Assembly (NCBI GenBank): GCA_965248595.1
Contig: CBDFJM010000003.1
Coordinates: 10,729 to 74,728 of the forward strand
DNA from: Dehalococcoidia bacterium
GTDB lineage: Bacteria; Chloroflexota; Dehalococcoidia; Lucifugimonadales; SHYF01
DNA: 64,000 nt
Direction: 5' to 3'
Shown here: positions 19,102 to 63,632 of the stretch, in pieces
Numbering within the stretch: position 1 is the stretch's first letter
Layout of the letters: the number at the start of each line of letters is the position of its first letter
Notes under the pieces: generated by a model
The model's database searches: none
Told to the model about the DNA's origin: nothing
Seen by the model: only the letters and a program-made list of their open reading frames with translations
Program-made: the position numbers and the translations under genes

Positions 19102-19113
19102 ACTTAATCCTCA

Positions 19114-19599: not shown

Positions 19600-19606
19600 C
19601 TCCATC

Positions 19607-19915: not shown

Positions 19916-20403
19916 TCTCTATCTCCTACCCGGGCTATAACGATAGCGCCAATCAGGACCACCAGGAGCAGCACCGATGCCACCTCAAAGGGAATGGCCC
20001 ACTGGGTGAACAAGGAGGTTCCTATCTCCTGTACGCTGGGGCCCTGGCGCTCCGCGCCAGCGGGCGTTCCAGTTTGGACTATGGCTGCCGCAATAACGCC
20101 GAATAGGCCCAGGGCCGCCAGGGCCGCAACAGGCCACTGGGGGTTCTCCATGGAACCTCGGAACTCCTGGAGGCGGGTAAGCATCAGGGCAAACAGAACG
20201 ACGATGACGATAGCGCCGCCGTAAATGAGGACCTGTACCAGTGCCAGGAACTCTGCGAATACCAGGAGATAAATGCCAGCCACGCCCATCAGCGAAGCCA
20301 GAAGAAACAGCGCGGCATGCACAATGTTCCTGGTGCCAACCACCCCCACAGCCCCTCCTAGAGTGAGAGCGCCTGCCACGTAGAACAGCACCAGTGAGGT
20401 CAT
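19912..20403 (-). CDS. nuoJ: NADH-quinone oxidoreductase subunit J
   Basis: 163 aa, ND6 family. 4-nt overlaps with its neighbours. Confidence 0.88.
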   Translation of the reverse strand: MTSLVLFYVAGALTLGGAVGVVGTRNIVHAALFLLASLMGVAGIYLLVFAEFLALVQVLIYGGAIVIVVLFALMLTRLQEFRGSMENPQWPVAALAALGLFGVIAAAIVQTGTPAGAERQGPSVQEIGTSLFTQWAIPFEVASVLLLVVLIGAIVIARVGDRD

Positions 20404-32737: not shown

Positions 32738-33328
32738 TTACGGAGATTGCTGCAGGTCGATGAGCTGTTCAATCTGCCCCAGTGCAACTTTGAAGTCTCC
32801 TGGAACGAACCCCAAGGCGTCGGCCGGTATTGCATTGGTGATGTCAATAAACACCGGCACCAGGGTGGACTCCACCAGGGTTGTCTGAAGAGAGCCGCGC
32901 AAGCCTGTCATGGTTACCACAGTGCCAAGAGCTCCCTCAGTGGGCAGGTCGGTTCCGAATCGAGCCGTAATAAGGATCAACGCCCCCGCCAGGGCCAGGC
33001 CAAAGACCAGGCCCACCACTATGGACCCGAGGGAGTCAACCCAGCCCAGGAAGACCAGGCTCAACATCTTCTTGGCGACGCTTTTGGCCACCTGAGCACC
33101 GAAAAAGACCCCAACAACGATAGCTACGTAGGCCAGCACCGTGGCTATGGCGTCGCCCGTGCCCTGCTCGGCGATCCAGGCAGCAATGTCGTCACTGAAA
33201 CGGCCCGCAACGAAGATCCCCACGACGACGCCAATAGTATTAAAGATAGCCCCCAGGAGGCCGATCTTCCAGCCAATGATCAGCCCCATGAAAGCGACCC
33301 CGGTAATGCCGTAATCGAACCAGTTCAT
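32738..33328 (-). CDS. cvpA: CvpA family membrane protein
   Basis: 196 aa. N-terminal MNWFDYGI...GLIIGWKIGLLG and four TM helices. Confidence 0.75.
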   Translation of the reverse strand: MNWFDYGITGVAFMGLIIGWKIGLLGAIFNTIGVVVGIFVAGRFSDDIAAWIAEQGTGDAIATVLAYVAIVVGVFFGAQVAKSVAKKMLSLVFLGWVDSLGSIVVGLVFGLALAGALILITARFGTDLPTEGALGTVVTMTGLRGSLQTTLVESTLVPVFIDITNAIPADALGFVPGDFKVALGQIEQLIDLQQSP

Positions 33329-35700
33329 GCTGCCTTCTCTTGCGAGGCCTCCGATGTCCGCAGCGCCACTTCCAGAACCCGGTCCATGTCCTTTGAATAG
33401 ATGAACTGGATATCGCGCCTCACCTTGGCGGGTATGTCTGCCACGTCCCTGCGGTTATCCTCGGGAAGGACGAATGTCTTGATACCGGCCCGATGTGCCG
33501 CCAGCACCTTCTCCTTGATTCCGCCCACTGGTAAGAGCTTGCCCCTCAAAGTGATCTCGCCTGTCATTGCTACGTCCTTGCGTACTGGGCGGCGAGTGAG
33601 CGCAGATACCAGGGCGGTGGTAAGGGCTGCGCCGGCTGAAGGGCCGTCCTTGGGGGTGGCCCCCGCTGGAACGTGGATATGAACGTCCAGAGTGGCAAAG
33701 AAGCCGTCTTTGACATTCCACTCCTGAGACCTGGCCCGCGAGTAGCTCAACGCAGCCTGGGCCGACTCTTTCATTATGTCTCCAAGATGGCCGGTGAGAA
33801 TGAGATTGCCCTTGCCCTTAAGGAGCGCCACCTCCACCGACAGGACATCGCCGCCCGTGGGTGTGTACGCTACGCCGGTGGCGACCCCCACCTCGTCCTG
33901 CTCCTCTGCCGTGCCCCAACCAAACCTGGGCGCTCCCAGGTAACCTGGTATGGACTGCGGACGAATAAGGCTGGAGGTTGTCTGCCCCTCGGCCACGTGT
34001 TTGGCCACCTTCCGGCAGATGGAGCCTAGCTCCCGCTCCAGGTTACGCACTCCTGCCTCCCTGGTATACTCCCGAATAATGCGCAGGATAGCCTTGGGGG
34101 AAAACCGTAGCTGACTTTCGGCTAGGCCGTGCTCTTGCACCTGCCTGGGCACAACGAACCGCTTGGCTATCTCCAGCTTCTCTTCCTCCGTATAGCCGGG
34201 CAGCTCGATAACCTCCATGCGGTCGCGCAGGGCTGGAAGGATGGGGTCCAGGACGTTGGCCGTGGTGACAAACATCACCCTGGACAGGTCGTAAGGGACC
34301 TCAAGGAAATGGTCGCTGAACGAGTGGTTCTGCTCTGGGTCCAGCACTTCCAACAACGCCGAGGATGGGTCGCCCCGGAAGTCCATGCCCACTTTGTCTA
34401 CCTCGTCCAGCATGAAGACCGGGTTGACGGTGCCGGCGCGGCGCATGGTCTGCAGTACCCGGCCAGGCAGAGCGCCCACGTAGGTGCGGCGGTGGCCGCG
34501 TATCTCCGCCTCGTCCCGGATGCCTCCCAGGCTTACGCGGACAAATTTGCGGCCCATAGCGGCGGCGATGGACTTGCCCAGGCTGGTCTTGCCAACACCC
34601 GGGGCTCCCACAAAGCACAGGATAGGGCTGCGCAGCTTCCCTTCGGACAGCTTCCTGACCGCCAGATACTCTAGAATGCGCTCCTTCACCTTGGCCAGGC
34701 CGTAATGGTTCTCATCCAGAACGCGCGCGGCCTGCCGTATGTCCAGGTTGTCGTCGGTCTGGGTTTTCCAGGGCAAGGAGATAAGCCAGTCCAAATAGCT
34801 CCGAACCACCGAGTTTTCTGGGGAGACTGGGGATATCAGGGCCAGTCGCTCCAGCTCCTCCAGTGCCTTTTTGCAGGCCTCTTCCGGCATACCGGACTCT
34901 TCTATCTTCGTCTTGAGGCTATCCACCTCCCGAGCTTGAGAGTCCGTCTCCTGGAGCTCCTTCTGTATGGCCCGCAGCTGCTCCCGGAGGAAGAACTCCC
35001 GGTGACTCTTGTCAACGGAGCCCTTTATCTCAGAGTCAATGCGGCCCTGCACCTCCAGGACATCCACCTCCTGGGCCAGGTGTATGTTCACCATGTGCAG
35101 CCTTTCCCCGGGTTCCAGGTTCTCCAGGACTGCCTGGCGTGCCTCCATGGGTATGTTGAGGGAGGAGCAGACCAGGTCCGCCAGATGCCCGGGGCCACCG
35201 GCATTCATGGCGGCCACATAGGAGTCCCAGAAGAGGTTGGGTGAAAGGCGTACGCACTTCTCGAAGAGGGCCAGCACAGAGCGCATAGACCCTTGGGTCT
35301 GGAGGGTATCTATCTGCGGCTCTAGCATGACCTCTGCTTTGGCCCGGTACCAGGGCTCCGTCTGGGTCACCTCGAGGATCCTCACCCTCTCCTCGCCCTC
35401 CAACCACACCGTGGCCGAGCCGTCGGGCATTTTCAACATCCGGCCCACAATGGCTATAGTGCCCACTGGGTAGAGGTCAACCACATCGAATTCGCGGCGG
35501 TCAACGTTGCGTCTGCCCACCACCAGGATCTTGCGATCGCCAGAGATCGCCTCTTCCAGGGCGCGCTGGTAAGCCGGGCGCATCACCATTAGCTGGGTAA
35601 GCAGCTTGGGAAACACCAGGGTATCCCTCCTGGGGAGGAGAGGCACCTCCATGGTCTTTGTTGTCTTTGAGTCTGCTTCAGCCGCCAGGTTAGTTGTCAA
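33325..35700 (-). CDS. lon: ATP-dependent protease Lon (LonA)
   Basis: 791 aa. LON N-domain, Walker A GAPGVGKTS, and protease PKDGPSAGAAL (catalytic Ser) ...GGIKEK. Confidence 0.97.
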   Translation of the reverse strand: MTTNLAAEADSKTTKTMEVPLLPRRDTLVFPKLLTQLMVMRPAYQRALEEAISGDRKILVVGRRNVDRREFDVVDLYPVGTIAIVGRMLKMPDGSATVWLEGEERVRILEVTQTEPWYRAKAEVMLEPQIDTLQTQGSMRSVLALFEKCVRLSPNLFWDSYVAAMNAGGPGHLADLVCSSLNIPMEARQAVLENLEPGERLHMVNIHLAQEVDVLEVQGRIDSEIKGSVDKSHREFFLREQLRAIQKELQETDSQAREVDSLKTKIEESGMPEEACKKALEELERLALISPVSPENSVVRSYLDWLISLPWKTQTDDNLDIRQAARVLDENHYGLAKVKERILEYLAVRKLSEGKLRSPILCFVGAPGVGKTSLGKSIAAAMGRKFVRVSLGGIRDEAEIRGHRRTYVGALPGRVLQTMRRAGTVNPVFMLDEVDKVGMDFRGDPSSALLEVLDPEQNHSFSDHFLEVPYDLSRVMFVTTANVLDPILPALRDRMEVIELPGYTEEEKLEIAKRFVVPRQVQEHGLAESQLRFSPKAILRIIREYTREAGVRNLERELGSICRKVAKHVAEGQTTSSLIRPQSIPGYLGAPRFGWGTAEEQDEVGVATGVAYTPTGGDVLSVEVALLKGKGNLILTGHLGDIMKESAQAALSYSRARSQEWNVKDGFFATLDVHIHVPAGATPKDGPSAGAALTTALVSALTRRPVRKDVAMTGEITLRGKLLPVGGIKEKVLAAHRAGIKTFVLPEDNRRDVADIPAKVRRDIQFIYSKDMDRVLEVALRTSEASQEKAA

Positions 35701-45736: not shown

Positions 45737-46042
45737 ATGAGCAGACGACCCCGCCGTAACCACTCGGCAGAGTTCAAGGCGAAGGTGGCTCTTGCCGCAG
45801 TGCGCGGCGACCGGACACTTTCGGAGCTGGCAAGCCAGTTCGATGTGCACCCGAACCAGATCACGCAATGGAAGACCCAGTTGCTGGATCGGGCGGCGCA
45901 GTTGTTTGGGGCCGGGACAGGGCAGGCTGAAAAGCCGGTAGATATGAAGGTCCTTCACGCTAAGATCGGTGAGCTTGCGTTGGAGAACGATTTTTTAGAG
46001 GCCGCGCTCACGAAGGCGGGATTGCCTGGCGCAAGGCGATGA
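45737..46042 (+). CDS. IS3-family transposase OrfA (HTH)
   Basis: 101 aa. RRNHSAEFKAKVALAAVRGDRTLSELASQFDVHPNQITQWK plus a leucine-zipper-like tail. Confidence 0.92.
   Translation: MSRRPRRNHSAEFKAKVALAAVRGDRTLSELASQFDVHPNQITQWKTQLLDRAAQLFGAGTGQAEKPVDMKVLHAKIGELALENDFLEAALTKAGLPGARR
45991..45997 (+). promoter_or_regulatory. Candidate -1 programmed ribosomal frameshift heptamer T TTT TTA (orfA to orfB)
   Basis: In orfA phase as gaT TTT TTA. A -1 slip reads FFRGRAHEGGIAWRKAMIDRDHK..., the orfB frame. Confidence 0.55.
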
Positions 46043-46866
46043 TCGACCGCGATCACAAGCTGCCTCTCGCCCTCCAGGCAAAGGCAGTGGGCATCAGCCG
46101 CGGGAGCATCTACTACCGGCCACGGCCGGTGGGCGAAGCCGGTCTCGGACTGATGCGCCGCATCAATGAGCTGCACCTTGAGTATCCGTTTGCAGGCAGT
46201 AGGATGATGCGAGGCCTGCTCCGCCAGGAGGGACTCTCCTGCGGGCGTAGACACATCGCCACACTGATGCGGCGTATGGGCATTGAGGCGCTGTACCGCA
46301 AGCCCAACACCAGCCGGCGACGGCCCGGCCATACGGTGTATCCGTACCTGCTGCGCGGGCTTGAGGTGAGCAGGCCCAACCAGGTGTGGGCAATGGATAT
46401 CACGTACATTCCGATGGCCAGGGGGTTCGTGTACCTAGCCGCAGTGATGGACTGGCATAGCCGCAAGGTGCTGGCCTGGCGGGTATCGGTCACAATGGAC
46501 ACAGACTTCTGCGTGGAGGCGCTCGAAGAATCCCTGGGACGCCACGGCGCGCCGGAGATATTCAACACAGATCAGGGAAGCCAGTTCACAAGTGACGCCT
46601 TCACCGGCCTGCTGAAAGCCAATGGGATCCAGATCAGCATGGACGGGAAGGGAAGCTGGAAGGATAATGTGTTCGTCGAACGGCTGTGGAAGAGCGTCAA
46701 GTACGAGGAGGTGTACCTGAGAGCCTACGAATCGGTCCCGGAAGCCAGAACTGGACTCGGGCGGTACTTCGAGTTTTACAATGCCGGACGGCCCCATTCG
46801 AGCCTTGGGGGAATGACGCCGGACCAGTTCTTTGACAGAGCGCCTGCCGAGTCCGCGGCGGCCTAA
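46039..46866 (+). CDS. IS3-family transposase OrfB (DDE integrase core)
   Basis: 275 aa. WAMDITY (D), FNTDQGSQF (D), VFVERLWKSVK (E+K) and RPHSSLG. Confidence 0.93.
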   Translation: MIDRDHKLPLALQAKAVGISRGSIYYRPRPVGEAGLGLMRRINELHLEYPFAGSRMMRGLLRQEGLSCGRRHIATLMRRMGIEALYRKPNTSRRRPGHTVYPYLLRGLEVSRPNQVWAMDITYIPMARGFVYLAAVMDWHSRKVLAWRVSVTMDTDFCVEALEESLGRHGAPEIFNTDQGSQFTSDAFTGLLKANGIQISMDGKGSWKDNVFVERLWKSVKYEEVYLRAYESVPEARTGLGRYFEFYNAGRPHSSLGGMTPDQFFDRAPAESAAA

Positions 46867-50984: not shown

Positions 50985-51235
50985 AGGAGGTGCTGTAGCC
51001 GATCCCCCGGCTCACACCTTGATGCATATGATTTGATACGGGCTGGCGTAGCCCGGGGGGTCGCCGCTCTCCTGATCCAAAGCGGCTCCCATGGTCGTCG
51101 AGTAGAGATGCGTTGGCAGCTCCCCTGCACGCTCTGAGATAGGCCCAAGACCGCTGATACCGCACAGTCTTTTTGACAAGCTCCCATGGCTTGCTACAGT
51201 GAGGATGCGACTACGCGTTTCCTATGACTACGGCT

Positions 51236-51585
51236 GTAGCTCCAGGTCATCGTGGACAACGGCCCCGAATTCGCCGGAAGGGTCTTGGATGCATGGGCCC
51301 TACCGGAGCGGTGCGACTGCACTTCATCGACCCCGGCAAGCCCATCCAGAACGCATTCATCGAGAGCTTCAACGGACAGCTCCGCGACGAGTGTCTCAAC
51401 GAGCACTGGTTCATGAGCTTGCCCGCTGCCCAGCGCATCGTGGCGACCTGGCGAGACGACTACAATGCCATCCGGCCCCACAGCGCCCTGGGCAACCGGA
51501 CACCAGAGGAGTTCGCACAACAGATGGTCAGGAAAACGCCGGTCGGACTCTAAGGATCCCTAGACCTAATCCGGGGAGCAGGTCA
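51236..51585 (+). pseudogene. Remnant of an IS3-family (IS2/IS407-like) transposase OrfB C-terminus with right inverted repeat
   Basis: VIVDNGPEFAG... in one frame and RLHFIDPGKPIQNAFIESFNGQLRDECLNEHWF...RPHSALG in another. The element end ...GGGGAGCAGGTCA lies at 51585. Confidence 0.8.
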
Positions 51586-53197: not shown

Positions 53198-53350
53198 TTT
53201 GACTCTGGCTCAGGATTGGGCCGGGTACTCAGGACCCTACCACAGTCACTTCCTTGAGTGAAAGCGAGGACAATGTTTTGACTCTGGCTTCGGATTGGGC
53301 CGAGTACTCAGGACCCTATCACAATCACTTCCTTGAGTGAAAGCGAGGAC
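53198..53350. repeat. Tandem duplication of a 74-bp unit (period 79 bp) in the 5' region of the downstream gene
   Basis: TTTGACTCTGGCT(C/T)(A/C)GGATTGGGCCG(G/A)GTACTCAGGACCCTA(C/T)CACA(G/A)TCACTTCCTTGAGTGAAAGCGAGGAC at 53198-53271 and 53277-53350. Confidence 0.9.
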
Positions 53351-53356
53351 GAAGTA

Positions 53357-54019
53357 ATGACTAAATGGACGATAAAGAGCAAGCCAACCTTCTTGGTGTT
53401 GGGAGCAGCGCTTACAGCACTGTTCGTAGTTTCTTTGCTTGTATACACGGACCAAGCTGGGGTTCAGGCCAGTTCAGGTAATCTGCTTCCAAGCATGACG
53501 ATGGTGTACGAAGTGTACGGCCCCTCCATTTCCGTCGGGGAGCGCTCTATCGAGCCCTTTAAGGAGTTGCATCGCCTCGAATACCAGTCGGAGACTGAAT
53601 GGGTCGACACCGTGATCGAGTCTCCGTCGGTCGACCTTGGCCGGTATGGCGTCGGGAGTAACGTCGGCTCGTACACGAGGTTGGATGGCAGAGCTATCGA
53701 CGAGTACGATGCAATGGATGGCAGCATGGAGGAGAGCGCCGTCTCCGAGGACAGCATCTTCGTGCCGAACTCGGCTTTCGCTTACGCTTTGGCAACGCCT
53801 AACTCCATGGACGACACCCCGGGGCTCTCGAAATCCCAAGTAGTCAGCAGTGCGACAGTGTGCTTCAACGGCGATTGCGAAGAGAATGCGCGTGGGGTTC
53901 TGTATAGCGGCGACGGGTTCGAGCTAGTAATGTTGATGAACGACTCTTGGGGCATCCCCCTTAGATTGGGGGACGGATTCCTGGTCAGGGAAATCGAGAT
54001 TCAGGTCGTAAAGCAATAG
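53357..54019 (+). CDS. Hypothetical membrane-anchored/secreted protein
   Basis: ATG 53357 preceded by GAGGAC. N-terminal TM segment PTFLVLGAALTALFVVSLLVY. No known motif. Confidence 0.5.
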   Translation: MTKWTIKSKPTFLVLGAALTALFVVSLLVYTDQAGVQASSGNLLPSMTMVYEVYGPSISVGERSIEPFKELHRLEYQSETEWVDTVIESPSVDLGRYGVGSNVGSYTRLDGRAIDEYDAMDGSMEESAVSEDSIFVPNSAFAYALATPNSMDDTPGLSKSQVVSSATVCFNGDCEENARGVLYSGDGFELVMLMNDSWGIPLRLGDGFLVREIEIQVVKQ

Positions 54020-54021
54020 CC

Positions 54022-55164
54022 CTACCGCCCGGCCCTGGGCATGGACTCTGGACGCTGCTTCCAATGCTTCTCGAAGAGGGTGCCGTAGGCTCCCCGCTGG
54101 GTGTAGCCGATGGCATCGGGCTCGGAGTCCATCCCGCACAGCATCACCTGCTCCTCGTAGGGAGGCAGCCCCGATGCCACGTCGGAGAGTCTGAGGAACA
54201 CGCTATTGCCTATGAGGTGAAACAGGGCGGCTGGGGCGAGCCCCGGCCGTTCCCGCACCACCTTGCGGTATCTCCGCCTACGGCTGAACCGTCCGTCCTC
54301 CACCGAGTCGTCGTCGTCCTTGCCGATGGTGTGCTCCTCGAAGCCGTAGCGGGATATCCACCTTCCCTCCTCGGAGCGCCCGAACTCCGTCCTGATGGCC
54401 GGGCTGAACCGGTAGAGCAGGTGGAACAAGGTGCTCGAATACCCTCCAGAGAGGGTGCCGGTCAGGGTGAGGGAGCGCCCGCAGGAGTCGGCGAGGACGC
54501 CCGCTGCGATGCCCTGGGCGGAGCCCCTTCCTTTGTACTCATGCACCTCGTCTGTTACGAGCAGCTCGAAGAAGCCCTTCATCCGCTTCTTGATGTAGTC
54601 GGCGAGCGGGTATCGCTTCGGCCCGTTGGGGTCGGCTTGCCAGAGGGCGGAGCCGCACCCAGCGCAGGTGCGCCGCTTGCGCCCCATCTCCTCGGCGGTC
54701 AGGGGCACACCGTCCTTGTCCACGATCTGGCTGGCCCGTTCTCTTGACATGATGGCGAAGAGGGGTCCTGGGCCGGTGGAGAGGCGCAGCTTCTCCAGGT
54801 CGGTGATGGAGGCGACGATGGCGACGCGGGCCTTGGGCACCGTCTGCTCGACCTCCCGCTTCCACTTCCGGGTCAGGTGCGGGGGTGTGAGGACGAGCAC
54901 CCGCTGGAAGCCAGCGGCGTAGGCTGCCGATGCGCCGAGGAAGGTCTTGCCGGTGCCCATCTCCCCCACGATGTTTGTGCCCTGGTGGGCCTTGAGGGAG
55001 AGGGTCACACCCCGTATGGCGTCGGCCTGCGCCCCCAGGGGGGAGCGTAGGAGTTGGGGCAGGCCGACGCCGTTCTGAGAGGGCCGGTAGAGGGGCGGGT
55101 AGGACTCCACCACCCGCTGAGCTATTGCGTCTCGGTAGGTGTCGATGAACTGAGCGAGGTCCAT
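54022..55164 (-). CDS. SNF2/DEAD-like helicase, N-terminal ATPase lobe only (3'-truncated)
   Basis: 380 aa. Walker A GEMGTGKT, motif II LLVTDEVHEY and LTGTLSGG. No helicase C-terminal lobe. The ORF stops exactly at the junction with AT-richer DNA. Confidence 0.75.
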   Translation of the reverse strand: MDLAQFIDTYRDAIAQRVVESYPPLYRPSQNGVGLPQLLRSPLGAQADAIRGVTLSLKAHQGTNIVGEMGTGKTFLGASAAYAAGFQRVLVLTPPHLTRKWKREVEQTVPKARVAIVASITDLEKLRLSTGPGPLFAIMSRERASQIVDKDGVPLTAEEMGRKRRTCAGCGSALWQADPNGPKRYPLADYIKKRMKGFFELLVTDEVHEYKGRGSAQGIAAGVLADSCGRSLTLTGTLSGGYSSTLFHLLYRFSPAIRTEFGRSEEGRWISRYGFEEHTIGKDDDDSVEDGRFSRRRRYRKVVRERPGLAPAALFHLIGNSVFLRLSDVASGLPPYEEQVMLCGMDSEPDAIGYTQRGAYGTLFEKHWKQRPESMPRAGR

Positions 55165-55287
55165 TGGTCGTCTCCTTCCTTATATATAGATATGTATGCC
55201 GGGTTCTTGTGGGTTGTAGCAAGAGGCGAGGCCCCGCTGGTCACTGACACCAGTGGGGCCTCGTGATGCGGCTCTGGGTGAGCAGTC

Positions 55288-56325
55288 TTATGCGGCGATG
55301 TCGGTTATCATGCCGTCCTCCAGGTCCAACGCGACGACAGTGGTGCGGAGCTTCTCCCGGTAGGTCTCCTTATCGGGGGTCTCCTCCACCAGGACCAGCT
55401 CCTTGGTGGTCTTCCCCTTGACCAGGATGCGCCGACCGTCGGCCTGGAGCTGGAGGTTGTCCAGGAAACCGGCAGCGATGAGCATGGCCATGTGTCCGCG
55501 ACGGAGCGGCATCAGTGGACGGGTGCGTTGGTCTTTGCTGGGCCACAGCGCGTCGGTGACCTCGGCGTTGGCCCACAGGCCGGAACGCCTCGCCTCGGCA
55601 GCAGCGGCCACGGGATCGACGTTGCGGGTGGCGAACAGGATGTCGCCTGCATCGGCGGTGGATGGGGTGTAGACGGGGTAGTTCGAGGAGACCAGCGGTC
55701 TTGGCTCCCCCTCCGACCACTCCCGTATCTCCCTCTCGACCTCCACGTCCAGATGGGGCTCCAGTTGCCGGTAGCCCATGACCACCACCTGGTCGAATGC
55801 CTCACGCTCAGGGTGCGGGAAAGCCCAGCACCTCAGCCTGGCGTAGTATGACGCCAGGTACTTGGCGGAGACGGCGAGACGCTGCCGGGGCACGATGAAC
55901 ACCAGCAGCCCTCCCTGGTCCAGGTAGCGGGTGACGTGGGTGAGAAACGCGTGCTCCGTCCGCTTACTTTCCGGATCGTGGTCGTATGGAGGGTTCAAAA
56001 AGCAGACGCCGAACGCCTGGTTGCCGATGGAGGTCTGGAACAGGTCCGCCGCCAGGGTGCGGCGCAAACGGCCCGCCGCCTCTTCCGCTCTCTCCTGGTG
56101 CAGCTCCACCCCGTAGGTCTCGATGGGGACCGTGTTGACGCTGGCCAACCGCTCCGCCAGTTGGGCCGCCGCTTCCCCCGCACCGCAGCAGGGGTCGAGG
56201 ATGCGGAGCGCCTCCCGGTTCCGGTAGTAGGAGCCCGAAGGAACCCGTATCAGCGAGGCGATGAAGTCAACCACCCGTTCTGGCGTGGGGTAAAAGCCCC
56301 CTTTACTCTGTGCTGCTAGTCTCAT
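55288..56325 (-). CDS. N6-adenine-type DNA methyltransferase (resembles mobile-element DUF6094-type methylases, from memory)
   Basis: 345 aa. FYPTPERVV, motif I ILDPCCGAGEAA and motif IV CFLNPPYD. Confidence 0.75.
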   Translation of the reverse strand: MRLAAQSKGGFYPTPERVVDFIASLIRVPSGSYYRNREALRILDPCCGAGEAAAQLAERLASVNTVPIETYGVELHQERAEEAAGRLRRTLAADLFQTSIGNQAFGVCFLNPPYDHDPESKRTEHAFLTHVTRYLDQGGLLVFIVPRQRLAVSAKYLASYYARLRCWAFPHPEREAFDQVVVMGYRQLEPHLDVEVEREIREWSEGEPRPLVSSNYPVYTPSTADAGDILFATRNVDPVAAAAEARRSGLWANAEVTDALWPSKDQRTRPLMPLRRGHMAMLIAAGFLDNLQLQADGRRILVKGKTTKELVLVEETPDKETYREKLRTTVVALDLEDGMITDIAA

Positions 56326-56585
56326 GACGTCTCTCCTTTCTCATGGTCGGTCGATATTGATGGGCCGAACTTGCAGGGTTCGGGGTTGCAGAAGTAGCAG
56401 TCCCTCCTCGCCCTGGGCGGTGGGACGTAGTCCTCGGCGGACAGCGCCTGGAATATCACCTGCACCCCGCAGGAGTTGCAGTGGTAGCTCTCTCCGGTAT
56501 GGACATCCTTGTCCGGCTCCTCAATCTGGGCGGACCGCTCCTCGCAGTGCGGGCAGGTGAAGAACAGGGTCTGGTTTGTGGTCAT
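56322..56585 (-). CDS. Zinc-ribbon protein (87 aa, three CxxC pairs)
   Basis: ATG 56585 with AAGGAG 8 nt upstream, inside the listed 186-aa ORF. CPHC...CNSC...CYFC. ATGA overlap with the methyltransferase. Confidence 0.6.
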   Translation of the reverse strand: MTTNQTLFFTCPHCEERSAQIEEPDKDVHTGESYHCNSCGVQVIFQALSAEDYVPPPRARRDCYFCNPEPCKFGPSISTDHEKGETS

Positions 56586-56614
56586 AGTGTTTCTCCTTTC
56601 ATCGGCTACCGCCT

Positions 56615-57013
56615 TCAGGCGGCGAGCCGCTTTTCTGACTTGATTCCCACCACCTCTCCGATAGCGCGGGTCCGCTGGTAGCAGAGGACCTGGCGGGTGC
56701 CGGCAGCTTCTGCGCAGGCGGTACAAAAGGCTGTGATAATCTCGGCGTGTTTCGCCACCGGCATCCGTCTGACCAGCACGTAGCCCCCATCGACTAGCGG
56801 GTGGCGGTAGAGGGTTACCCTGGGGTCGCGCCTCTCTGCCTCCGTCGCTGGCCGATAGAAATGCGGTTGCGCGGAGGTGCACAGGTGCTGCGTGTGGTCG
56901 TGCCGGCAGAAACGGCAGGTCGTTCCGTCCGGCGAGAAGCGCTGCCAGGCTTTGAAATGCCGCTCCTGCCTGCGTTTGTTTGTGCGTTTGGCAATTGTCA
57001 GCGTCTTATCCAT
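56615..57013 (-). CDS. Hypothetical Cys/His-rich protein (132 aa)
   Basis: GGAGGAGGG SD. CRFC and CTAC pairs. No family recognised. Confidence 0.55.
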   Translation of the reverse strand: MDKTLTIAKRTNKRRQERHFKAWQRFSPDGTTCRFCRHDHTQHLCTSAQPHFYRPATEAERRDPRVTLYRHPLVDGGYVLVRRMPVAKHAEIITAFCTACAEAAGTRQVLCYQRTRAIGEVVGIKSEKRLAA

Positions 57014-57665
57014 ACCCTCCTCCGTTCACTGCTGCCACGATGGACTCTTCCTCTCCGGGTAGGGTCAGCGTCCCAGAAGCCACCGCCTCCGAGAGGTCCT
57101 CCTTGAGGGATTCGGGGTTGGGGTTGCAGCGGTAGGCGACCACTCCCGTCGATTGGAGCTGAGTGGTCTCCTCCTTCTGAAGGCCCCGCCGCCACAGCCA
57201 GTCTGCCCAGGAGGGATGCAACGGCAGTGGGCTCCTCTTGTCCAGGAAGCGGTAGTGGAGCCTGGGGGCCTCGTCTTCCGTCTGGGCCAGGAGGAGGAAG
57301 GTGTCGTGTTCGGAGGCGTACTGGGCCATTTTCGTATAGACCAACGCGTGCCAGCCCCCACTCACCGGCAGCTTGGCGATCTTGGTCGTCCACGTGCCAA
57401 TTGTTTGGTACGGGATACCGCAGCGCTCATACCCTCCCGAGAGGGCCATCCCATCCGCGCCCTGGATGAGGTGGGCAACATCGGGCGGTTGCTTGAGCAG
57501 GGAGGCCCAGATCGCCTTGAGCGCCGTCTGGGAGCCCACCATCGAGACGAACCAGAGGCCGTCGGTCGCCTCGTCGCGGGCGAAGGCGTCGGCGGTGGCC
57601 GAGAACCCCCCGGCGTTGATGGTGTACAGGGCTTCGGGGTCGAGTGTGTGGTCGGTTGCAAGCAT
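57006..57665 (-). CDS. Hypothetical protein (219 aa)
   Basis: AAAGGAG SD. Overlaps the downstream gene by 8 nt. No family recognised. Confidence 0.55.
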   Translation of the reverse strand: MLATDHTLDPEALYTINAGGFSATADAFARDEATDGLWFVSMVGSQTALKAIWASLLKQPPDVAHLIQGADGMALSGGYERCGIPYQTIGTWTTKIAKLPVSGGWHALVYTKMAQYASEHDTFLLLAQTEDEAPRLHYRFLDKRSPLPLHPSWADWLWRRGLQKEETTQLQSTGVVAYRCNPNPESLKEDLSEAVASGTLTLPGEEESIVAAVNGGGYG

Positions 57666-57769
57666 GGGTATGTCTCCTTTCGGTAATTGGAATGCTGATG
57701 CGCGGAGGCGCGGTGACTCCGTGGGGCCGGTAAGGGTCGTTGCTGGGCTGCCTGGGTTTTCCTATAGGG

Positions 57770-58273
57770 TTAGAGGGTGGTGATGAGGCCGCGCTCCTTG
57801 AGGCTGACGGCCTTGTCCCCGCCGATGACCACGTGGTCCAGTAGCTCGACCCCCAGGAGCTTGCCCGCCTCCATGAGCTTCTTGGTAATAGCCACGTCAG
57901 CCGGGCTCGGTTCGGGGTCTCTGCTGGGATGATTGTGGACGACGATGATGCTTGGAACCGCCTCAATGACGGCGGGCCGGAACACCTCCGCCGGTCTGAC
58001 GGTGATGGAGCTCACGTCGCCCTGGTAGACGACCCGCTGGCCCACCACTTCGGTCCTGGTATTGAGGAGCAGGACCCGTAGCTGCTCCTGGGCGAGGCGG
58101 GCCATCTCCGGCGCTAGCAGCAGCCGCACCGCCTCGGGCGAATAGACCGCCGGAGGGTCGGCGGGGCGCGGTGGATGGGTCTCCACCCCGTAGCGCACGG
58201 CCAGCTCTCCCAGGATGCTGACGTTGCGCCGGAGGGTCTCCAGTAGTGTGTCGGTGTAGCGTTCCGTGGTCAT
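57770..58273 (-). CDS. radC: RadC-like JAB domain protein
   Basis: Start moved to ATG 58273 (GGGAGG SD). ...IIVVHNHPSRDPEPSPADVAITKKL...GVELLDHVVIG. Confidence 0.88.
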   Translation of the reverse strand: MTTERYTDTLLETLRRNVSILGELAVRYGVETHPPRPADPPAVYSPEAVRLLLAPEMARLAQEQLRVLLLNTRTEVVGQRVVYQGDVSSITVRPAEVFRPAVIEAVPSIIVVHNHPSRDPEPSPADVAITKKLMEAGKLLGVELLDHVVIGGDKAVSLKERGLITTL

Positions 58274-58387
58274 AGGGACCTCCCGTAGGTGTAAGTGGAC
58301 TGAAACGAGAAGCGGGGCCGATCCCAAAGGTGGGAACGGCCCCGTGGAGCGCCTGCGAAACGGCGGACGGCAGTAGGTGTTTCTGGC

Positions 58388-58783
58388 CTAGAAGGGTGAC
58401 TTGGCCGTCACCGGTTCCTCAGCAGCCGCGTCCTCAGACTCCTTCGCAGAGCCATTCCCGTTGCGAGAGTCGAGGAAGACCACCTCGGAGGCGTGAATCT
58501 CGGTGCGGTGCCTGCGCTGTCCGTCCTCGGTTTCATACGAGTTCTGGGCCAGCTTGCCTGCGACGTACAGCCGGTCCCCTTTGGCGACATACTGGTTCAC
58601 CGCTTCGGCCAGGCCGGACCAGCAGGTGATACTGTGCCAGTCCGTGCTCGTCTCTCCGTTCTGGCGGTGTCGGTCGGTGGCCAGCCGTAGCTGGGTGATG
58701 GCGGTGCCGCTCTGGGTGTATTTCATTTCGGGGTCTGCTCCGACCCGTCCCAGTAGCTCTACCTTGTTGATTGTGCGTGCCAT
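58388..58783 (-). CDS. ssb: Single-stranded DNA-binding protein
   Basis: 131 aa. MARTINKVELLGRVGADPEMKYT OB-fold and an acidic tail ending ...SPF. Confidence 0.92.
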   Translation of the reverse strand: MARTINKVELLGRVGADPEMKYTQSGTAITQLRLATDRHRQNGETSTDWHSITCWSGLAEAVNQYVAKGDRLYVAGKLAQNSYETEDGQRRHRTEIHASEVVFLDSRNGNGSAKESEDAAAEEPVTAKSPF

Positions 58784-58897
58784 GTCGTTTCTCCTTTGTG
58801 TGTGTAGTAGTGCGGCGTTGCCGCACTCGAATGGAAATGCAGCGCCGTCCCCTTCCGAAGGGAACGGTCTTGTCCATGCGCTCCCGTTACAGAGCGT

Positions 58898-59956
58898 CTA
58901 GCTCACCCGCACGTACTGAGACACGGCCTCCGTCACAATGTCGACGCGGGTATCCGGGTCCAGCAGCGCGTTCAGCTTGCGGTAGTCGACCGAGAAGCGG
59001 CGGGTCTGCACCAGGCTTACCGACCGGCCCTCGACGCTTGCTTTGGTCATCCCCCGCTGCCGCATCCACGACTTGAGGGTGTCCAGCGCCCGGCGTTTGG
59101 CCTGTTCCGGCTCCCGAAGGGCTTCCTGCGCTTCCAGGTATGCCCGCGCCGCCTCCCGGGCCTCCTCCGCGCTCACCTCCCTTCCTTCTATGTCCGGTGA
59201 CTCGTCTGTTTCTCCTCTTTCCTCGGCTGCTCCGGGCTTGCACGTGTTCAGGAACGGGCAGCTCCGGCACTGCCAGCTACCGGCGCGGAAGTCCCGCTCC
59301 GGCAGCTCGTCCGGGTCCTGTCCGTGGGCGGCGTAGTGGTCGGCCAGCTCGCCGAGCCGGAATGTAACGGCCTCCATCGCGTCCTCCACGCGTTCGGCGG
59401 GAATCGTCTCCGTGTCCCAGGCTCGGCTGCCCGTGTCCATCGTGGCGATCACCACATCGCGCTTCTCCCCGAATAGCCCGTAGGTGTAGAGAGCGGCCTG
59501 GGCGACCGATTCGGGGTGACTCCGCTCTGCGCCAAGGGTCTGCCAGCGCTTGTAGGCTTCCGGCCCCCTGGTCTTGACCTCGACGATCACCTCCGGCCCT
59601 CCGAAGAAGGGGAGGATGCCGGTGGCGTCGGGGTGGCCGGTAACGCGGAGGTTGGGGGTGATCTGGGCCGTCACCTCCCTGGGGTTGTTGGGGTCCACCG
59701 GGGTCACGTCCCAGCTCGCACGCTCCATCGCCCGCAGCACCACCTGCTCAAGGGCCTGCCCCGCCTCCATGACGGTCAGGGATTCGTCGCTGGGAGGGTT
59801 GGTGGGCTGATGTTCAGTGGCGGCATACCAAAGGGCTCTGCGGCAGCTGCTGGCGGCCGATGCCCGCACCACCAGCGCCCCGTCGCCGTCGAAATGGGCT
59901 GCCGGTCGTGAGTAGACCTCCGACCGGTCGTTGGTCAGGTCCTCGTTCTGGCTCAT
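58898..59956 (-). CDS. PD-(D/E)XK nuclease, Cas4/RecB-like with C-terminal Cys cluster
   Basis: Start moved to ATG 59956 (AAAGGAG SD). GHPD...IVEVKTR nuclease core, with SSCRR... and CRSCPFLNTC cysteines. Confidence 0.7.
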   Translation of the reverse strand: MSQNEDLTNDRSEVYSRPAAHFDGDGALVVRASAASSCRRALWYAATEHQPTNPPSDESLTVMEAGQALEQVVLRAMERASWDVTPVDPNNPREVTAQITPNLRVTGHPDATGILPFFGGPEVIVEVKTRGPEAYKRWQTLGAERSHPESVAQAALYTYGLFGEKRDVVIATMDTGSRAWDTETIPAERVEDAMEAVTFRLGELADHYAAHGQDPDELPERDFRAGSWQCRSCPFLNTCKPGAAEERGETDESPDIEGREVSAEEAREAARAYLEAQEALREPEQAKRRALDTLKSWMRQRGMTKASVEGRSVSLVQTRRFSVDYRKLNALLDPDTRVDIVTEAVSQYVRVS

Positions 59957-60048
59957 GGTCACTTCTCCTTTGCTCCTGAATATGAAGAGCGGAGCCGCCC
60001 CCGTAGAGACAGCCCCGCCTTTGCGCAACGCTCGGTTGTCTGTGCAGC

Positions 60049-60468
60049 TCATGCGGCTGCCTTAGCTTCGGTTCCTTCTTCCTCTCCTCTCTGCTTCTCC
60101 TCTCTCTCCTGCCTGGCCTTGAGGAAGCCCCGCAGGATGTGGGCGATAGCGTCTCCTAAACCGAGCACCCATATGCTCGACCCATCGCTCAACTGATTGG
60201 CGAAGGGCTGCATCTCAGCTATGCCCTGGCACTGGTCCACGATCTCGGCGACGGGCGTGCCCCTCCGCAAGTGCAGCGAGACGAGTCGGCAGGCCAACTC
60301 CGTCACCCCGGAGGTGAAGGAACCCGCCTTGCCGATGCTTCCGAAGACCTCGAAGGGCTCACCGTCCTCGTCCAGGGACACCGTGATGTAGAGGTTCCCG
60401 TGCTCGGTATGGAGCTTGGTCGTGCTGCTTGGCAGCGTCCTGGGCCTGGGCCGTGTCGCCGGGGTCAT
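60049..60468 (-). CDS. TSCPD-like domain protein (RNR class II C-terminal-like), conserved cysteines replaced
   Basis: 139 aa. GNLYITVSLDEDGEPFEVFGSIGKAGS...LVSLHLRRG resembles the TSCPD domain. ...GLGDAIAHIL stands where TSCPDAIA is expected. Confidence 0.55.
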   Translation of the reverse strand: MTPATRPRPRTLPSSTTKLHTEHGNLYITVSLDEDGEPFEVFGSIGKAGSFTSGVTELACRLVSLHLRRGTPVAEIVDQCQGIAEMQPFANQLSDGSSIWVLGLGDAIAHILRGFLKARQEREEKQRGEEEGTEAKAAA

Positions 60469-60785
60469 GGTCCCTCCCCCTTCTCAAGGAGATAGGGAAG
60501 GGCTGGGGCGTAGCGGTCGAAGAATTTGGCGACCTTGAGGGCACACTCCCGGTCCCTCTTGTCGCCGATGCCCAGCAGCGTCTGGACGATGACCTCTTCG
60601 CAGTCCTCTTCGGCGTAGGTCGGGGTCAGCAGCGTCTCTTGGACGGCAGGGGGAAGGGAGTCCCACCGCTCCCAGCTCAGCTTCAGCCCGCCGTGGCTGG
60701 CCGTTTCGATCCGCACCACGCCCTCGGCCAGTGCTACGACGTCCTGGGGAGGTCCCCACGGGGTATACATAGTGTTCACTTTCAT
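60465..60785 (-). CDS. Hypothetical mobile-element protein (TPWG...SHGG motif; DUF7007-like, from memory)
   Basis: 106 aa. MYTPWGPPQDV...IETASHGGLKL. GAAAGGAG SD. Confidence 0.5.
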   Translation of the reverse strand: MKVNTMYTPWGPPQDVVALAEGVVRIETASHGGLKLSWERWDSLPPAVQETLLTPTYAEEDCEEVIVQTLLGIGDKRDRECALKVAKFFDRYAPALPYLLEKGEGP

Positions 60786-60808
60786 GTCGTCTCCTTTCGG
60801 TCCTGTAG

Positions 60809-60846
60809 ATGAAAACGGGGCTGCCCCGGTGTGCAGACAGCCCCGT
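60809..60846 (-). terminator. Stem-loop with short T-run after the Rad52-like gene
   Basis: Minus strand AACGGGGCTG-N14-CAGCCCCGTT followed by TTC. Lies between the stop at 60875 and the next start at 60785. Confidence 0.4.
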
Positions 60847-60874
60847 TACGTGGGCTCGCTATGGCGCGTTGGGC

Positions 60875-61627
60875 TCATGCCGCTTCCGCCGCCTCTGCTT
60901 CCCGCGTCTGCTGGAGCTTCCGGGTCGCCCCTTGCACGAGCGGCGTCAGCTCCGATGCCGATACCGCCTCAAGGTCCTTGCCCGTCTTGCCCTTGACCGC
61001 AGCCCGCACCTGCTTCTCGTCGAACCCCTGCATCGCCCCCAGGTCGATCAGCGTCGCCCGCAGCGGCGGAGCAAGGGAGTCGGCTGCGCTTTCCTGCTTC
61101 GCCGGTTGCCCGGTGGCCGCCTGGTCTCCGTAGAGGCAATTCCCGAACTGGTCTCCGAAGCTGCGCAGGGCGCGTTTGAGACCGTCGGTAACCGACCCTT
61201 TGCAGGCTGTGTCGTGACCCTCCGCCGTCTCCTCCGCCACGGCGTGGAACCCGATATCCGTGCGGGGCGGAGCGCCGGGGACGGTGACCCGCACCGGAGC
61301 GCTGTAGGCGCGGATGCGGCTGATCTCGCCCGTCTTGGGGTCGACCTGCTCGATCTCCCGCAGGGTCACGTCGCCCACCACTTCATAACCCCAACCCGCT
61401 AACCCGAAGATGCGGTTCGCCTGGTCGATGACGGTGTGGCCCTCGATGTAGTTGTAATTGCGCCCGGCCCGTCCCTTGCGCTGGGAGACCAGGCTCGGGT
61501 CGAGGGGCTTCTCCAGCTCGCTCACCACCTTGGGGGACAGGCTGTCCCAGAGCAGGTCGTGCTCCGGAGTGATGGCAGCGTCCGGGTGGACGCCGTTGCT
61601 TCCGTTCTTGGTCGATGAGGTCGTCAT
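60875..61627 (-). CDS. Rad52/Rad22-family single-strand annealing protein
   Basis: 250 aa. ...LVSQRKGRAGRNYNYIEGHTVIDQANRIFGLAGWGYEV... Confidence 0.8.
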   Translation of the reverse strand: MTTSSTKNGSNGVHPDAAITPEHDLLWDSLSPKVVSELEKPLDPSLVSQRKGRAGRNYNYIEGHTVIDQANRIFGLAGWGYEVVGDVTLREIEQVDPKTGEISRIRAYSAPVRVTVPGAPPRTDIGFHAVAEETAEGHDTACKGSVTDGLKRALRSFGDQFGNCLYGDQAATGQPAKQESAADSLAPPLRATLIDLGAMQGFDEKQVRAAVKGKTGKDLEAVSASELTPLVQGATRKLQQTREAEAAEAA

Positions 61628-61846: not shown

Positions 61847-62905
61847 CTACCTAACGGTGCGGGATGCCCGTGCAAGCAAGCCCCGGAACGTGGTCTGTCC
61901 GTGGGGCGTCGTGGCGAGCTCGGCCACGTCAGCGGCCACCCCAAACAAGCGCACCGTGGCGGCGCGCCGTCCAAGCAAGCTTTCAAGCCGCTCGGCGGCC
62001 TCGCGGCCCGCATCGTCTGAGTCGAAGGCGAGGAACACGCGAGGGAAGGCAAGCAAGCTACCTGCCACCCGCTCCATGCCCTGTGTCCCCAGGGCTGCGC
62101 AGGCGGGGAGGCCCCACTGCTCAAGGGCAAGCCAGTCGAACACCCCTTCAGTAAGGACCACCCAAGACGGCGCAAGGCCAAGCCGCCCAAGTCCAAGCAC
62201 CGGCTTGGGTCCGGGCAGCGCCTGAAACCTCGGCGTCCGCTCCGGGTCAATGGCCCGGCCCACAAGCCAGCGGGCGCGGCCCGAGGCCAGGTCGGGAACC
62301 ACCACCATCCCTGCGAACCGCTCGCCCCGCTCGGTGAACAGGCCCGACGCCCGTATCCGCTCGCCGCCGAATCCGGCGGCGCCAAGGTACTGGCGCAGCC
62401 CGTCCCCCGGCGCGTAGCCAAGACCCAGGCGGCAGGCGGTGTCGAAGCTGATGCCCCTGGAGCCCAGATACTCACGCGCCTCACTGCTGCGCAGCATGGA
62501 CCGGAGGTAGAACCTCGTTGCCGCCGACAGCGCCGCCGGGTCCCGCTGGGGAACCACGGGAGCAGCGGTACGCCGTGGCGCGGCCTGTGTCCTCGACCGG
62601 ACGGCTGGGCTGGGAGCCAGCCCAGTCCCACCACCCAGCCTCTGTATCGCCTCGGGCAGGGTGAGGCCCTCGGCCCGCTGGATAAAGTCCAGCACGTCCC
62701 CACCAACTCCACAGCCGAAGCAGTAAAACCTGGACGTGTCGGCGTACACCGTAAAGCTGCCTTCCGACTCCTGGTGGAAGGGGCAGACGCCCTGACGGAC
62801 GCGGCCCCTTCCCCTCAGCTGCACGCCCGCAGCCTCCACCACGTCGGCCAGGGAATGGCGGCTCTTGAGCGCCTCCAGGTCAACCTGTGTGTTGGCTACG
62901 ACCAT
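61847..62905 (-). CDS. DnaG-like primase (CHC2 zinc finger + TOPRIM)
   Basis: Start moved to ATG 62905 (AAAGGAGG SD). CPFHQESEGSFTVY...FYCFGCGVGGDVLDFI and TOPRIM LTEGVFD...FDSDDAG. Confidence 0.85.
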   Translation of the reverse strand: MVVANTQVDLEALKSRHSLADVVEAAGVQLRGRGRVRQGVCPFHQESEGSFTVYADTSRFYCFGCGVGGDVLDFIQRAEGLTLPEAIQRLGGGTGLAPSPAVRSRTQAAPRRTAAPVVPQRDPAALSAATRFYLRSMLRSSEAREYLGSRGISFDTACRLGLGYAPGDGLRQYLGAAGFGGERIRASGLFTERGERFAGMVVVPDLASGRARWLVGRAIDPERTPRFQALPGPKPVLGLGRLGLAPSWVVLTEGVFDWLALEQWGLPACAALGTQGMERVAGSLLAFPRVFLAFDSDDAGREAAERLESLLGRRAATVRLFGVAADVAELATTPHGQTTFRGLLARASRTVR

Positions 62906-63363
62906 GACCCACCTCCTTTCAGGGGCTTCAGGCCCCGCAGGCTCCTCGCGGAGACCACCTTGCCCGGCTGCCACCCCATCCCCAGCACAGCCAGGACTTT
63001 CACGGTCCCGTCGCCGTGGGGAGCGAGCGCCGCAGCTCTGCCAGCGCCCTGGCTGTAGACCAGGGTCTCGCTTTGCCCGAACCGTCGTCGCACCAGGTCC
63101 TGCCACTCGGCGAAGGCCCAACGCGCCTCGCGCACATCCGCCGTGGCGGTGTCCAGGTCGGCTATGAGCGTCAACGCACCGTCGAGGTTCCCCGCCTTCC
63201 GCAGCCGCCGTGCGTCGTGGACCCTCCGGGCCACGGTCTCCTGGGGCTGCTCGCGGTTGCTGGCAAAGAGGGCATCCATCACCCGGTCCACCAGCTCCTC
63301 CAGACTGCGCCTGGGCCTTTCACCCACCACCATCGTTCTGTTGTTCATCACTGCCGTTGTCAT
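62896..63363 (-). CDS. Hypothetical protein (155 aa)
   Basis: Start moved to ATG 63363 (AAAGGAGG SD). Overlaps the primase start by 10 nt. No motif recognised. Confidence 0.5.
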   Translation of the reverse strand: MTTAVMNNRTMVVGERPRRSLEELVDRVMDALFASNREQPQETVARRVHDARRLRKAGNLDGALTLIADLDTATADVREARWAFAEWQDLVRRRFGQSETLVYSQGAGRAAALAPHGDGTVKVLAVLGMGWQPGKVVSARSLRGLKPLKGGGSWS

Positions 63364-63632
63364 CACGACCTCCTTTCTACTTTCGATTGCCGTAGTGCTT
63401 GTATCGCCTGTTTCCTGTTCCTTGCGCCCATGAACCGCCGGAGCATCAACGCTCCGCATCCAAGGGCCAGAGCGTTGACGGTGAAGGCGTCAACGCCTGA
63501 ACCGGTCAACAGGGGCATTACCAGGAGCAACGCCACGCCTGCCGCCAGCGTCCTCCGTTTGTGCCGCCGCATGGCTCTTGCGGTCCCGGCGACGGCGGCC
63601 AGGACCCGTGGGGACTGTTCCTTGCTGTGCAT
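63363..63632 (-). CDS. Small membrane protein (89 aa)
   Basis: ATG 63632 with TAAGGAGG SD. Central hydrophobic stretch TLAAGVALLLVMPLL. Appears to be the first gene of the packed minus-strand block. Confidence 0.45.
   Translation of the reverse strand: MHSKEQSPRVLAAVAGTARAMRRHKRRTLAAGVALLLVMPLLTGSGVDAFTVNALALGCGALMLRRFMGARNRKQAIQALRQSKVERRS

Follow-up and report, generated by a model that had tools for sequence, protein, structure and literature searches.

Five consecutive reading frames at positions 54022-57665 of a 64,000-nucleotide stretch of Dehalococcoidia bacterium contig CBDFJM010000003.1 (the whole of this stretch is called the window below) encode three small proteins, an orphan amino-methyltransferase and an ATPase of the SNF2 type, and they raise the question of whether all five belong to a single system of a mobile element that has not been described before, as an original prediction from the sequence had proposed. 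The comparisons reported here indicate that three of the five, i.e., the genes for a 219-residue protein of an unnamed family (g219), a methyltransferase of the DUF6094 family and a superfamily 2 (SF2) helicase, travel together and form a module that is common to unrelated plasmids, conjugative elements and phage-like contigs. The other two genes (g132 and g87, after the lengths of their products) are lineage-specific, interchangeable and dispensable Zn-binding occupants of a variable slot beside the methyltransferase gene, and not obligate parts of the module. In the window itself, the ATPase gene is a truncated pseudogene.

Arrangement of the five genes

All five of the predicted reading frames are present on the minus strand, and a GGAG-type ribosome-binding site precedes each of them. 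In the direction of their transcription, they are g219 (57006-57665); g132 (56615-57013), for a basic Zn-binding protein with the pattern CxxCxH-x4-H ... CxxC-x10-C; g87 (56322-56585), for an acidic four-Cys zinc-ribbon protein with a second Cys cluster of lower conservation; the gene for the DUF6094-family methyltransferase (55288-56325); and the remains of a gene for a Snf2-like SF2 ATPase (54022-55164). In the upstream part of the set, for all of which translational coupling had been proposed, g219 and g132 overlap by 8 nt (57006-57013), g132 is separated from g87 by a 29-nt gap and g87 overlaps the methyltransferase gene by 4 nt, in an ATGA at 56322-56325. The methyltransferase and ATPase genes are 123 nt apart, and this junction is therefore not translationally coupled. 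Neither a promoter-like site nor a convincing terminator was found within 53900-58900.

A three-gene module in unrelated mobile elements

The related loci in which the contents of the operon were compared (these and other loci are designated by L numbers where they must be told apart) are the best 80 of 178 stretches related to the methyltransferase in a search of species-representative genomes, and their gene order was determined by tblastn of the window proteins against them. These 80 loci all come from metagenome-assembled genomes (MAGs) of Dehalococcoidia/Chloroflexota, often several per genome, and g219 was found in every one of them in which the region is intact. The association of g219 with the other two genes of the triad extends to its distant relatives, since each distant member of the family that could be placed on a long enough contig is followed directly by a DUF6094 gene and a gene for an SF2 helicase. 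One of these members (P0198, 32% identical to g219) is found in L086/L087 beside Rad52 and opposite phage tail genes; another (P0249) is in L169, together with UvrD, PDDEXK, ERF, ribonucleotide reductase (RNR) and an archaeo-eukaryotic primase (AEP); and a third (P0220) is in L171, with UvrD nearby. On the shorter contig L170, only a g219-family gene followed by DUF6094 can be seen.

Over its full length, the window methyltransferase is 28-34% identical to the products of genes annotated as "DUF6094 domain-containing protein" on about 300 plasmids. The helicase neighbour was examined in five external elements: pMU3262 of Thermoanaerobacterium, pOCEPR01 of Oceanithermus, pTHEOS02 of Thermus, pKLC102 of Pseudomonas aeruginosa and pXO1 of Bacillus anthracis. 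All five are conjugative or mobile elements, a DEAD/DEAH helicase gene lies beside DUF6094 in each of them (5/5), and these helicases are orthologous to the Dehalococcoidia enzyme (26-43% identity, E 1e-37 to 1e-159). A tblastn search with g219 against plasmid and phage collections yielded nothing at database-wide E-values, and the links to the plasmids come from a profile (A2) that represents a diverse set of g219 relatives and was run on the syntenic open reading frames (ORFs). This profile matched the ORF just upstream of DUF6094 in pOCEPR01 (2e-13) and pKLC102 (8.5e-8), the ORF just downstream of it in pTHEOS02 (6.8e-8) and, in pMU3262, residues 20-184 of the 899-aa helicase itself (1.7e-16); the alignment of the Dehalococcoidia helicase with the same protein covers residues 189-842 of the latter. 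The 861-aa helicase of pXO1 has a matching N-terminal extension, so that the g219 domain is probably fused to the helicase there as well. Thus, the g219 domain is adjacent or fused to the orthologous pair in these elements, but its placement differs from the separate upstream gene of the window in pMU3262, probably in pXO1, and in pTHEOS02.

To judge from these matches, the triad is spread over Chloroflexota, Deinococcota, Bacillota (pXO1) and Pseudomonadota (pKLC102), as well as phage-like contigs. Its fusion in one or two lineages, its adjacency in four phyla and the overlapping reading frames of the window suggest that the three products work together, and they probably form a complex. The profiles of g132 and g87 had no match in the external elements that were examined; the two are extra genes that occur only in the conjugative element of the Dehalococcoidia. 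Of the co-occurrence that the original prediction had asked for across unrelated elements, then, the part that concerns g219, the methyltransferase and the helicase is observed in several phyla, and the part that concerns g132 and g87 is not.

The g219 protein family

The first of the small genes had been described as having no motif, a view that must be revised in light of the size and conservation of its family. A library of 1.84 billion proteins, clustered at 50% identity, contains 398 clusters of g219 relatives at E<=1e-3, and 729 close homologues were counted; no member of the 398 clusters is named or carries a Pfam domain, and g219 itself has no match in Pfam, PHROG, NCBIfam or PADLOC. 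The median ratio of nonsynonymous to synonymous substitution rates (dN/dS) among orthologues in the related loci is 0.205. The protein is acidic (isoelectric point, pI, about 4.9-5.0), as is the g87 product, and M1, S41, P148 and W153 are its invariant positions.

A structure of g219 was predicted with AlphaFold2 (AF2), for which a shallow alignment gave a mean predicted local distance difference test score (pLDDT) of 48.7 and a diverse alignment gave 92.9, with a predicted template modelling score (pTM) of 0.85. The latter model consists of a beta-rich domain at the N-terminus and a helical part at the C-terminus, the second of which bears the near-invariant motif PLPLHxSWxxWLW. Foldseek searches with the model found nothing significant in the Protein Data Bank (PDB; best E 0.2) or BFVD (best E 0.012, template modelling (TM) score 0.25), and profile searches of the PDB sequences were empty. 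Beta-barrel, Hcp, baseplate and winged-helix folds were considered for g219 and discarded as weak matches (TM<=0.28). A scan of IMG/VR for a distant relative was also empty, and the A2 alignment is too divergent for pattern scanning. Among the invariant residues there is no catalytic-looking acidic residue or His, for which reason we would regard g219 as an adaptor or a DNA- or partner-binding subunit, and not as an enzyme.

The DUF6094 methyltransferase

The product of the methyltransferase gene matches PF19587 with 86.9 bits (cut-off 22.8, E=1.5e-24), and the MTS and N6_Mtase families match as well. The motifs that had been read from the sequence are as described, with FYPTP at residues 11-15, DPCCGAGE at 44-51 and NPPY at 111-114, i.e., in the order X-I-IV, and the protein aligns with its orthologues over residues 1-345. 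Domain searches of the operon detected no nuclease that could serve as its partner. On these grounds it is an orphan amino-methyltransferase with the motif order of the gamma class, and it appears to be intact; the predicted combination of an orphan methyltransferase with a location on a mobile element is supported. DUF6094 has a curated entry in Pfam but is uncharacterised; in the literature searched, the one paper that mentions it lists it as unknown, and searches there that centred on PAPI-1 and ICEclc yielded no functional work.

Variable slots beside the methyltransferase gene

Although g132 and g87 are not part of the module, the two of them, like g219, are real genes, as indicated by the existence of orthologues, by dN/dS values of 0.20-0.27 and by conserved Cys and His residues. 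The median dN/dS is 0.220 for g132 and 0.269 for g87, values comparable to those of the methyltransferase (0.263) and RadC (0.349), and all three small genes are under purifying selection. The CxxC pairs noted in both proteins are conserved among the orthologues taken from the related loci: in 72 sequences of g132 (pI 10.1, i.e., strongly basic) C33, C36, H38, H43, C97 and C111 are invariant and C100 is present in 71/72, and in 35 sequences of g87 the invariant residues are C11, C14, C36 and C39, with C63, C66 and C71 mostly kept. The reading of g87 as an 87-aa gene within a longer listed ORF of 186 aa was correct, because its orthologues begin at the same Met.

Database searches place neither protein in a described family. 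There is no match for g132 in Pfam, PHROG, NCBIfam, PADLOC or the PDB, and no relative of it in IMG/VR. For g87 the matches are to generic Zn fingers and ribbons: it scores 19.5 bits against the Lar family (TIGR03655, E=9e-4), below the cut-off of 39.6 bits, and it matches the consensus C2H2 finger 1mey (6.7e-6) by way of the shared CxxC and HTGE-Y-C spacing. The profile searches that had been recommended for the small proteins, together with the fold search for g219, returned only these Zn-knuckle matches of g87. Like g87, the restriction-alleviation protein Lar is a small CxxC...CxxC zinc-ribbon protein encoded by mobile elements, but the likeness is limited to generic Zn knuckles, and the membership of g87 in the Lar family is not demonstrated.

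The contents of the slot between g219 and the methyltransferase gene were tabulated for 74 of the 80 related loci, namely those with an intact 3' end of g219. Both g132 and g87 are found in 32 of these loci, g132 only in 27 and neither gene in 15, such that g132 is present in 59/74 and g87 in 32/74; in keeping with this variation, the distance from RadC to the methyltransferase gene falls into discrete size classes among related loci. Since g132 and g87 are optional, and since they are confined to the lineage of integrative and conjugative elements (ICEs) of the Dehalococcoidia, the five genes are not one unit, and the proposal of a five-gene system does not survive the comparison. The slot is empty in some copies of the element. 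In 6 of the 15 loci that have neither gene, the slot holds an unrelated ORF of 155-180 aa (L047:9434-9961, L051:9495-10004, L057:9496-9981, L066:9496-9963, L067:9494-9979 and L071:9439-9981). Its product, which has no Pfam match, carries the motif GDCVVRAIA...TKHVAA(I/V)VDG, possibly with a Cys/His dyad.

The spacer between the methyltransferase and helicase genes varies as well, and it forms another slot for genes of the Zn-ribbon-like kind. It measures 0.4-1.65 kb in many of the relatives, versus 123 nt in the window, and holds other small CxxC proteins (L013:11090-11350, L064:11712-11927, L066:11144-11359, L070:11149-12553, L077:11638-11844 and L078:11164-11382), including a recurrent family of 64-92 aa with the pattern C-x2-C...YH..G.CY.

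A broken helicase gene at the border of the element

The ATPase of the window had been predicted to be of the SNF2 type on the strength of its motifs, which are indeed present (GEMGTGKT at residues 67-74, or Walker A, and DEVH at 205-208), as is a ResIII N-lobe (2.7e-7). The intact orthologue in the closest relative (L008:11164-13461) is a protein of 765 aa with a Helicase_C domain, and its C-lobe matches the Snf2 remodellers CHD1L, INO80, ISWI and SWR1 at 1e-8 to 1e-6 (about 1e-8 for the first two); because of this resemblance, "SNF2-type" is a fair label for the helicase family. Of the two lobes that characterize Snf2 proteins, the L008 orthologue has both and the window copy lacks the Helicase_C lobe. 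Only 380 aa are left in the window out of about 765, the alignment ends at residue 406 of the orthologue, and a 40-aa in-frame internal deletion has taken the CCPIC knuckle of a Zn ribbon that is inserted into the N-lobe. The gene is a truncated pseudogene, and the window copy therefore cannot work as a helicase-containing module.

The DNA homology to all related loci ends at window position 54066, where the GC content falls from ~0.65 to 0.57, and the final 14 codons of the truncated ORF are junction sequence. The element has been cut inside the helicase gene, so that the module in the window has decayed. The non-ICE side of the breakpoint is marked by a plus-strand ORF of 228 aa (53333-54019), the end of which is 3 nt away from the stop codon of the truncated helicase ORF; its product has a hydrophobic segment at the N-terminus and no match in Pfam. 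Left of 54066 the DNA is ordinary chromosome, with genes for nuo subunits, a housekeeping-type Lon (33325-35700, ~20 kb from the five genes), a pyridoxal-phosphate (PLP) decarboxylase, a histidine kinase and a PAS-LuxR regulator. The lower-GC DNA that separates the ICE fragment from the chromosomal genes contains an intact IS3-family transposase (46039-46866; HTH_21 + rve) and a short rve-like remnant (~51224-51553), an observation that fits a rearrangement at the ICE border. There are no tRNA genes in the 64-kb window.

The conjugative element of the Dehalococcoidia

The five genes stand at the distal end of an operon of their element that is concerned with DNA processing or establishment. 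The order of genes that is conserved among the relatives is: a 187-aa protein of no assigned family (62896-63459 in the window), DnaG-type primase (61847-63121), Rad52 (60875-61627), DUF7007 (60465-60785), TSCPD (60049-60468), a Cas4/RecE-like exonuclease (58898-60052), SSB (58388-58783), RadC (57770-58327), g219, optionally g132 and g87, the methyltransferase and the helicase, all of them on the minus strand in the window; the genes from primase to RadC were identified by domain searches. The Rad52-family annealing protein and the Cas4/RecE-like PD-(D/E)XK exonuclease (58898-61627) make up a recombination pair of the Red/RecET-like kind. The small DUF7007 and TSCPD-domain proteins are encoded between them, and the TSCPD domain, which is usually a part of class II ribonucleotide reductases, stands alone there.

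Conservation ends within a few hundred bases past the stop codon of the helicase gene and, on the other side, reaches 10 kb or more beyond the primase gene. In the relatives, this upstream DNA encodes, in divergent orientation, a pilin of a type IV secretion system (T4SS; L095) and a VirB4/TraC-like ATPase with TrbL/VirB6 (L120). L095 is the same element as L008, which is about 82-97% identical to the window DNA, depending on the segment; in this closest relative the T4SS genes fall just past the point that corresponds to the end of the window, and they are not visible in the window. The linkage of T4SS genes in the relatives shows that the element is conjugative, and it is most likely an ICE.

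The element is unusually abundant in its host lineage. A search with the primase detected 306 stretches in the species-representative genomes, with up to six or more copies per chromosome, and six or more ICE copies, many of them partly decayed, can reside in a single Dehalococcoidia or Tepidiformaceae chromosome of 2.4-3.8 Mb (for example, OZ252106.1, OZ253575.1 and CBDEFX010000001.1). In sister copies, group II introns with ORFs for reverse transcriptase (RT), maturase and HNH domains, and with domain V (RF00029), lie in the sense orientation inside g219, g132 and the helicase gene (L004:3321-6073 and 6706-9613; L005:11388-14392; also in L007, L012, L020, L022 and L042). A recurrent site for these insertions of ~3 kb is located after about codon 75 of the helicase gene, just beyond Walker A; an intein at this codon was considered and discarded, as the insertion is a group II intron. 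In pXO1, a group II intron directly follows the orthologous helicase gene. Past the helicase gene, where the copies of the element diverge, L008 carries a trio of genes that resembles a defence island (14734-20073), consisting of HATPase_c_3, Z1 and DUF4420 (PD-(D/E)XK).

Known systems and the possible function of the triad

As the original prediction had anticipated, no described system fits the set, and its nearest described context is that of the establishment or leading-region genes of plasmids and conjugative elements. No function has been published for the plasmid-borne DUF6094-helicase pairs in the literature searched. The leading-region orphan methyltransferases, such as M.EcoGIX and M.BceJIII, resemble the window enzyme in that their genes, too, share a block of a conjugative element with SSB and other establishment genes, but the window enzyme belongs to DUF6094 and has obligate helicase and g219 partners. 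Orphan methyltransferases rank with the most strongly enriched families of the leading regions of plasmids, and protection of the entering DNA against restriction by the recipient is documented for this class (PMC11541004, PMC7736820). The DarB protein of phage P1, to which the set had been likened, offers a functional analogy, in that it also combines an orphan N6-type methyltransferase with an SF2 helicase on a mobile element and without a nuclease. Homology to DarB is rejected on BLASTP comparisons that show no significant similarity in either half (E=0.07 for the methyltransferase and 0.22 for the helicase), and DarB is a single 2255-aa protein that is packaged in the virion, in contrast to the three separate proteins of a conjugative element that make up the module in the window.

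By analogy with these cases, the triad would most likely serve for the translocase-coupled protective methylation of incoming element DNA, the best supported of the readings, although we consider it evenly balanced between being right and being wrong. In such a scheme, g219 would dock on the N-terminus of the helicase, which is the site of its fusion in other elements, and the Snf2-like translocase would carry the orphan methyltransferase along the newly acquired duplex DNA of the element, or would clear proteins from this DNA; the element DNA might thereby become methylated before the restriction enzymes of the recipient act, and so escape restriction. The triad has neighbours of the kind that is usual in leading or establishment regions, namely SSB, primase, RadC and Rad52, and ArdC in the pOCEPR01 neighbourhood. 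Several points weigh against protective methylation. That DNA is the substrate is presumed, and the methyltransferase has weak matches to PrmC/HemK, MTS and rRNA methyltransferases; enzymes that methylate protein glutamine or rRNA can likewise be of the NPPY type. For the Dehalococcoidia ICE, the location of the operon in a leading region, with respect to oriT and the relaxase, is putative. The evidence for a physical complex consists of gene fusion and gene overlap, and BLASTP finds no sequence relationship to DarB. Moreover, the recombination and replication genes that recur nearby (Rad52 or ERF, UvrD and primases) fit a role in replication or recombination equally well.

On such an account, the motor, together with g219 and the methyltransferase, would be an accessory of ICE or phage replication, or of recombination by single-strand annealing, that remodels or marks the element DNA (for example at a fork, D-loop or origin), and would not act in counter-defence. 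The triad is indeed always found among genes of this kind: Rad52, the Cas4-like exonuclease, SSB and primase in the window, Rad52 in pMU3262, pTHEOS02 and L086, the ERF, PDDEXK, UvrD, RNR and AEP primase genes of L169, UvrD in L171, and an "ICE replication protein" in pKLC102. Replication modules generally need no amino-methyltransferase, however, and a mixture of replication and anti-defence genes is routine in the early or leading regions of mobile elements. Furthermore, the triad is constant among elements in which the replication genes beside it differ (a DnaG-type or an AEP primase, Rad52 or ERF), a pattern that speaks for an autonomous function, and we regard the accessory role as rather unlikely. 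Still further from probable, in our estimation, is a defence system carried as cargo, in which the methyltransferase and helicase would protect the host or the element against phages in the manner of BREX, DISARM or MADS and the small proteins would be sensors or effectors. In all of these systems a methyltransferase is paired with a helicase or an Snf2 ATPase, which is a recurrent layout in defence and had been brought up for the window set, and the defence-like genes of L008 come directly after the helicase. The PADLOC search that had been suggested matched the methyltransferase to mad2 (2.7e-16), but the match spans just the generic methyltransferase core (positions 266-401 of 492), that to mad8 is insignificant (E=0.0096), and g219, g132 and g87 match nothing in PADLOC. 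The hallmark genes are absent: Pfam and PADLOC searches of all operon genes detected no PglZ, BrxC/PglY or BrxL of BREX, no DrmA, DrmB (DUF1998) or PLD nuclease DrmC of DISARM, and no other nuclease or effector; in the PADLOC search of the window proteins, the helicase among them in its truncated form, the other mad genes of MADS were absent as well. The module belongs, in addition, to the fixed core of the element, where its genes are aligned with those for replication and overlap them in part, and does not occupy a variable cargo spot, and it occurs alike on plasmids, ICEs and phage-like contigs.

For the copy in the window, it is somewhat probable that the five genes are inert wreckage in a decaying ICE remnant and that those remaining have no present function. 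The helicase gene has lost both an internal segment and its second half, the set has an IS3 transposase and an IS remnant in its vicinity, and many of the sister copies are riddled with group II introns. Against this, g219, g132, g87 and the methyltransferase gene are full-length and uninterrupted, and the decay is therefore recent or partial. The wreckage explanation concerns the window copy only and is compatible with protective methylation at the level of the family.

Implications

Taken alone, the window copy has small biological weight, being truncated and having lineage-specific extras for two of its three small proteins. The combination of a mobile-element orphan methyltransferase with a helicase is already known in kind; what is new is the third component with no known fold, the fact that it can be fused to the helicase, the wide distribution of the triad and the variable slots of Zn-ribbon genes around the methyltransferase gene. 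The triad is present on medically relevant elements (pXO1 of B. anthracis and pKLC102 of P. aeruginosa) as well as environmental ones, where it is annotated only as "DUF6094", "helicase" and "hypothetical", and the literature searched contains no functional study of it.

Orphan methyltransferases and helicases help to decide whether plasmids, ICEs and phages cross restriction barriers, and the fold-orphan partner and its helicase fusion offer a concrete hypothesis that is testable in tractable hosts. In the most far-reaching form of this hypothesis, which we put forward as a doubtful but possible one, g219, the DUF6094 methyltransferase and the Snf2-like translocase would be an undescribed, ancient three-component machine that conjugative plasmids, ICEs (those of the pKLC102 type and pXO1 included) and phage-like elements of at least four phyla have in common, for the translocation-coupled methylation of incoming DNA or the stripping of proteins from it. 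Such a machine would represent a new mechanism of counter-defence or establishment, g219 would have a new fold, and the flanking slots might be a reservoir of small Zn-ribbon anti-defence proteins.

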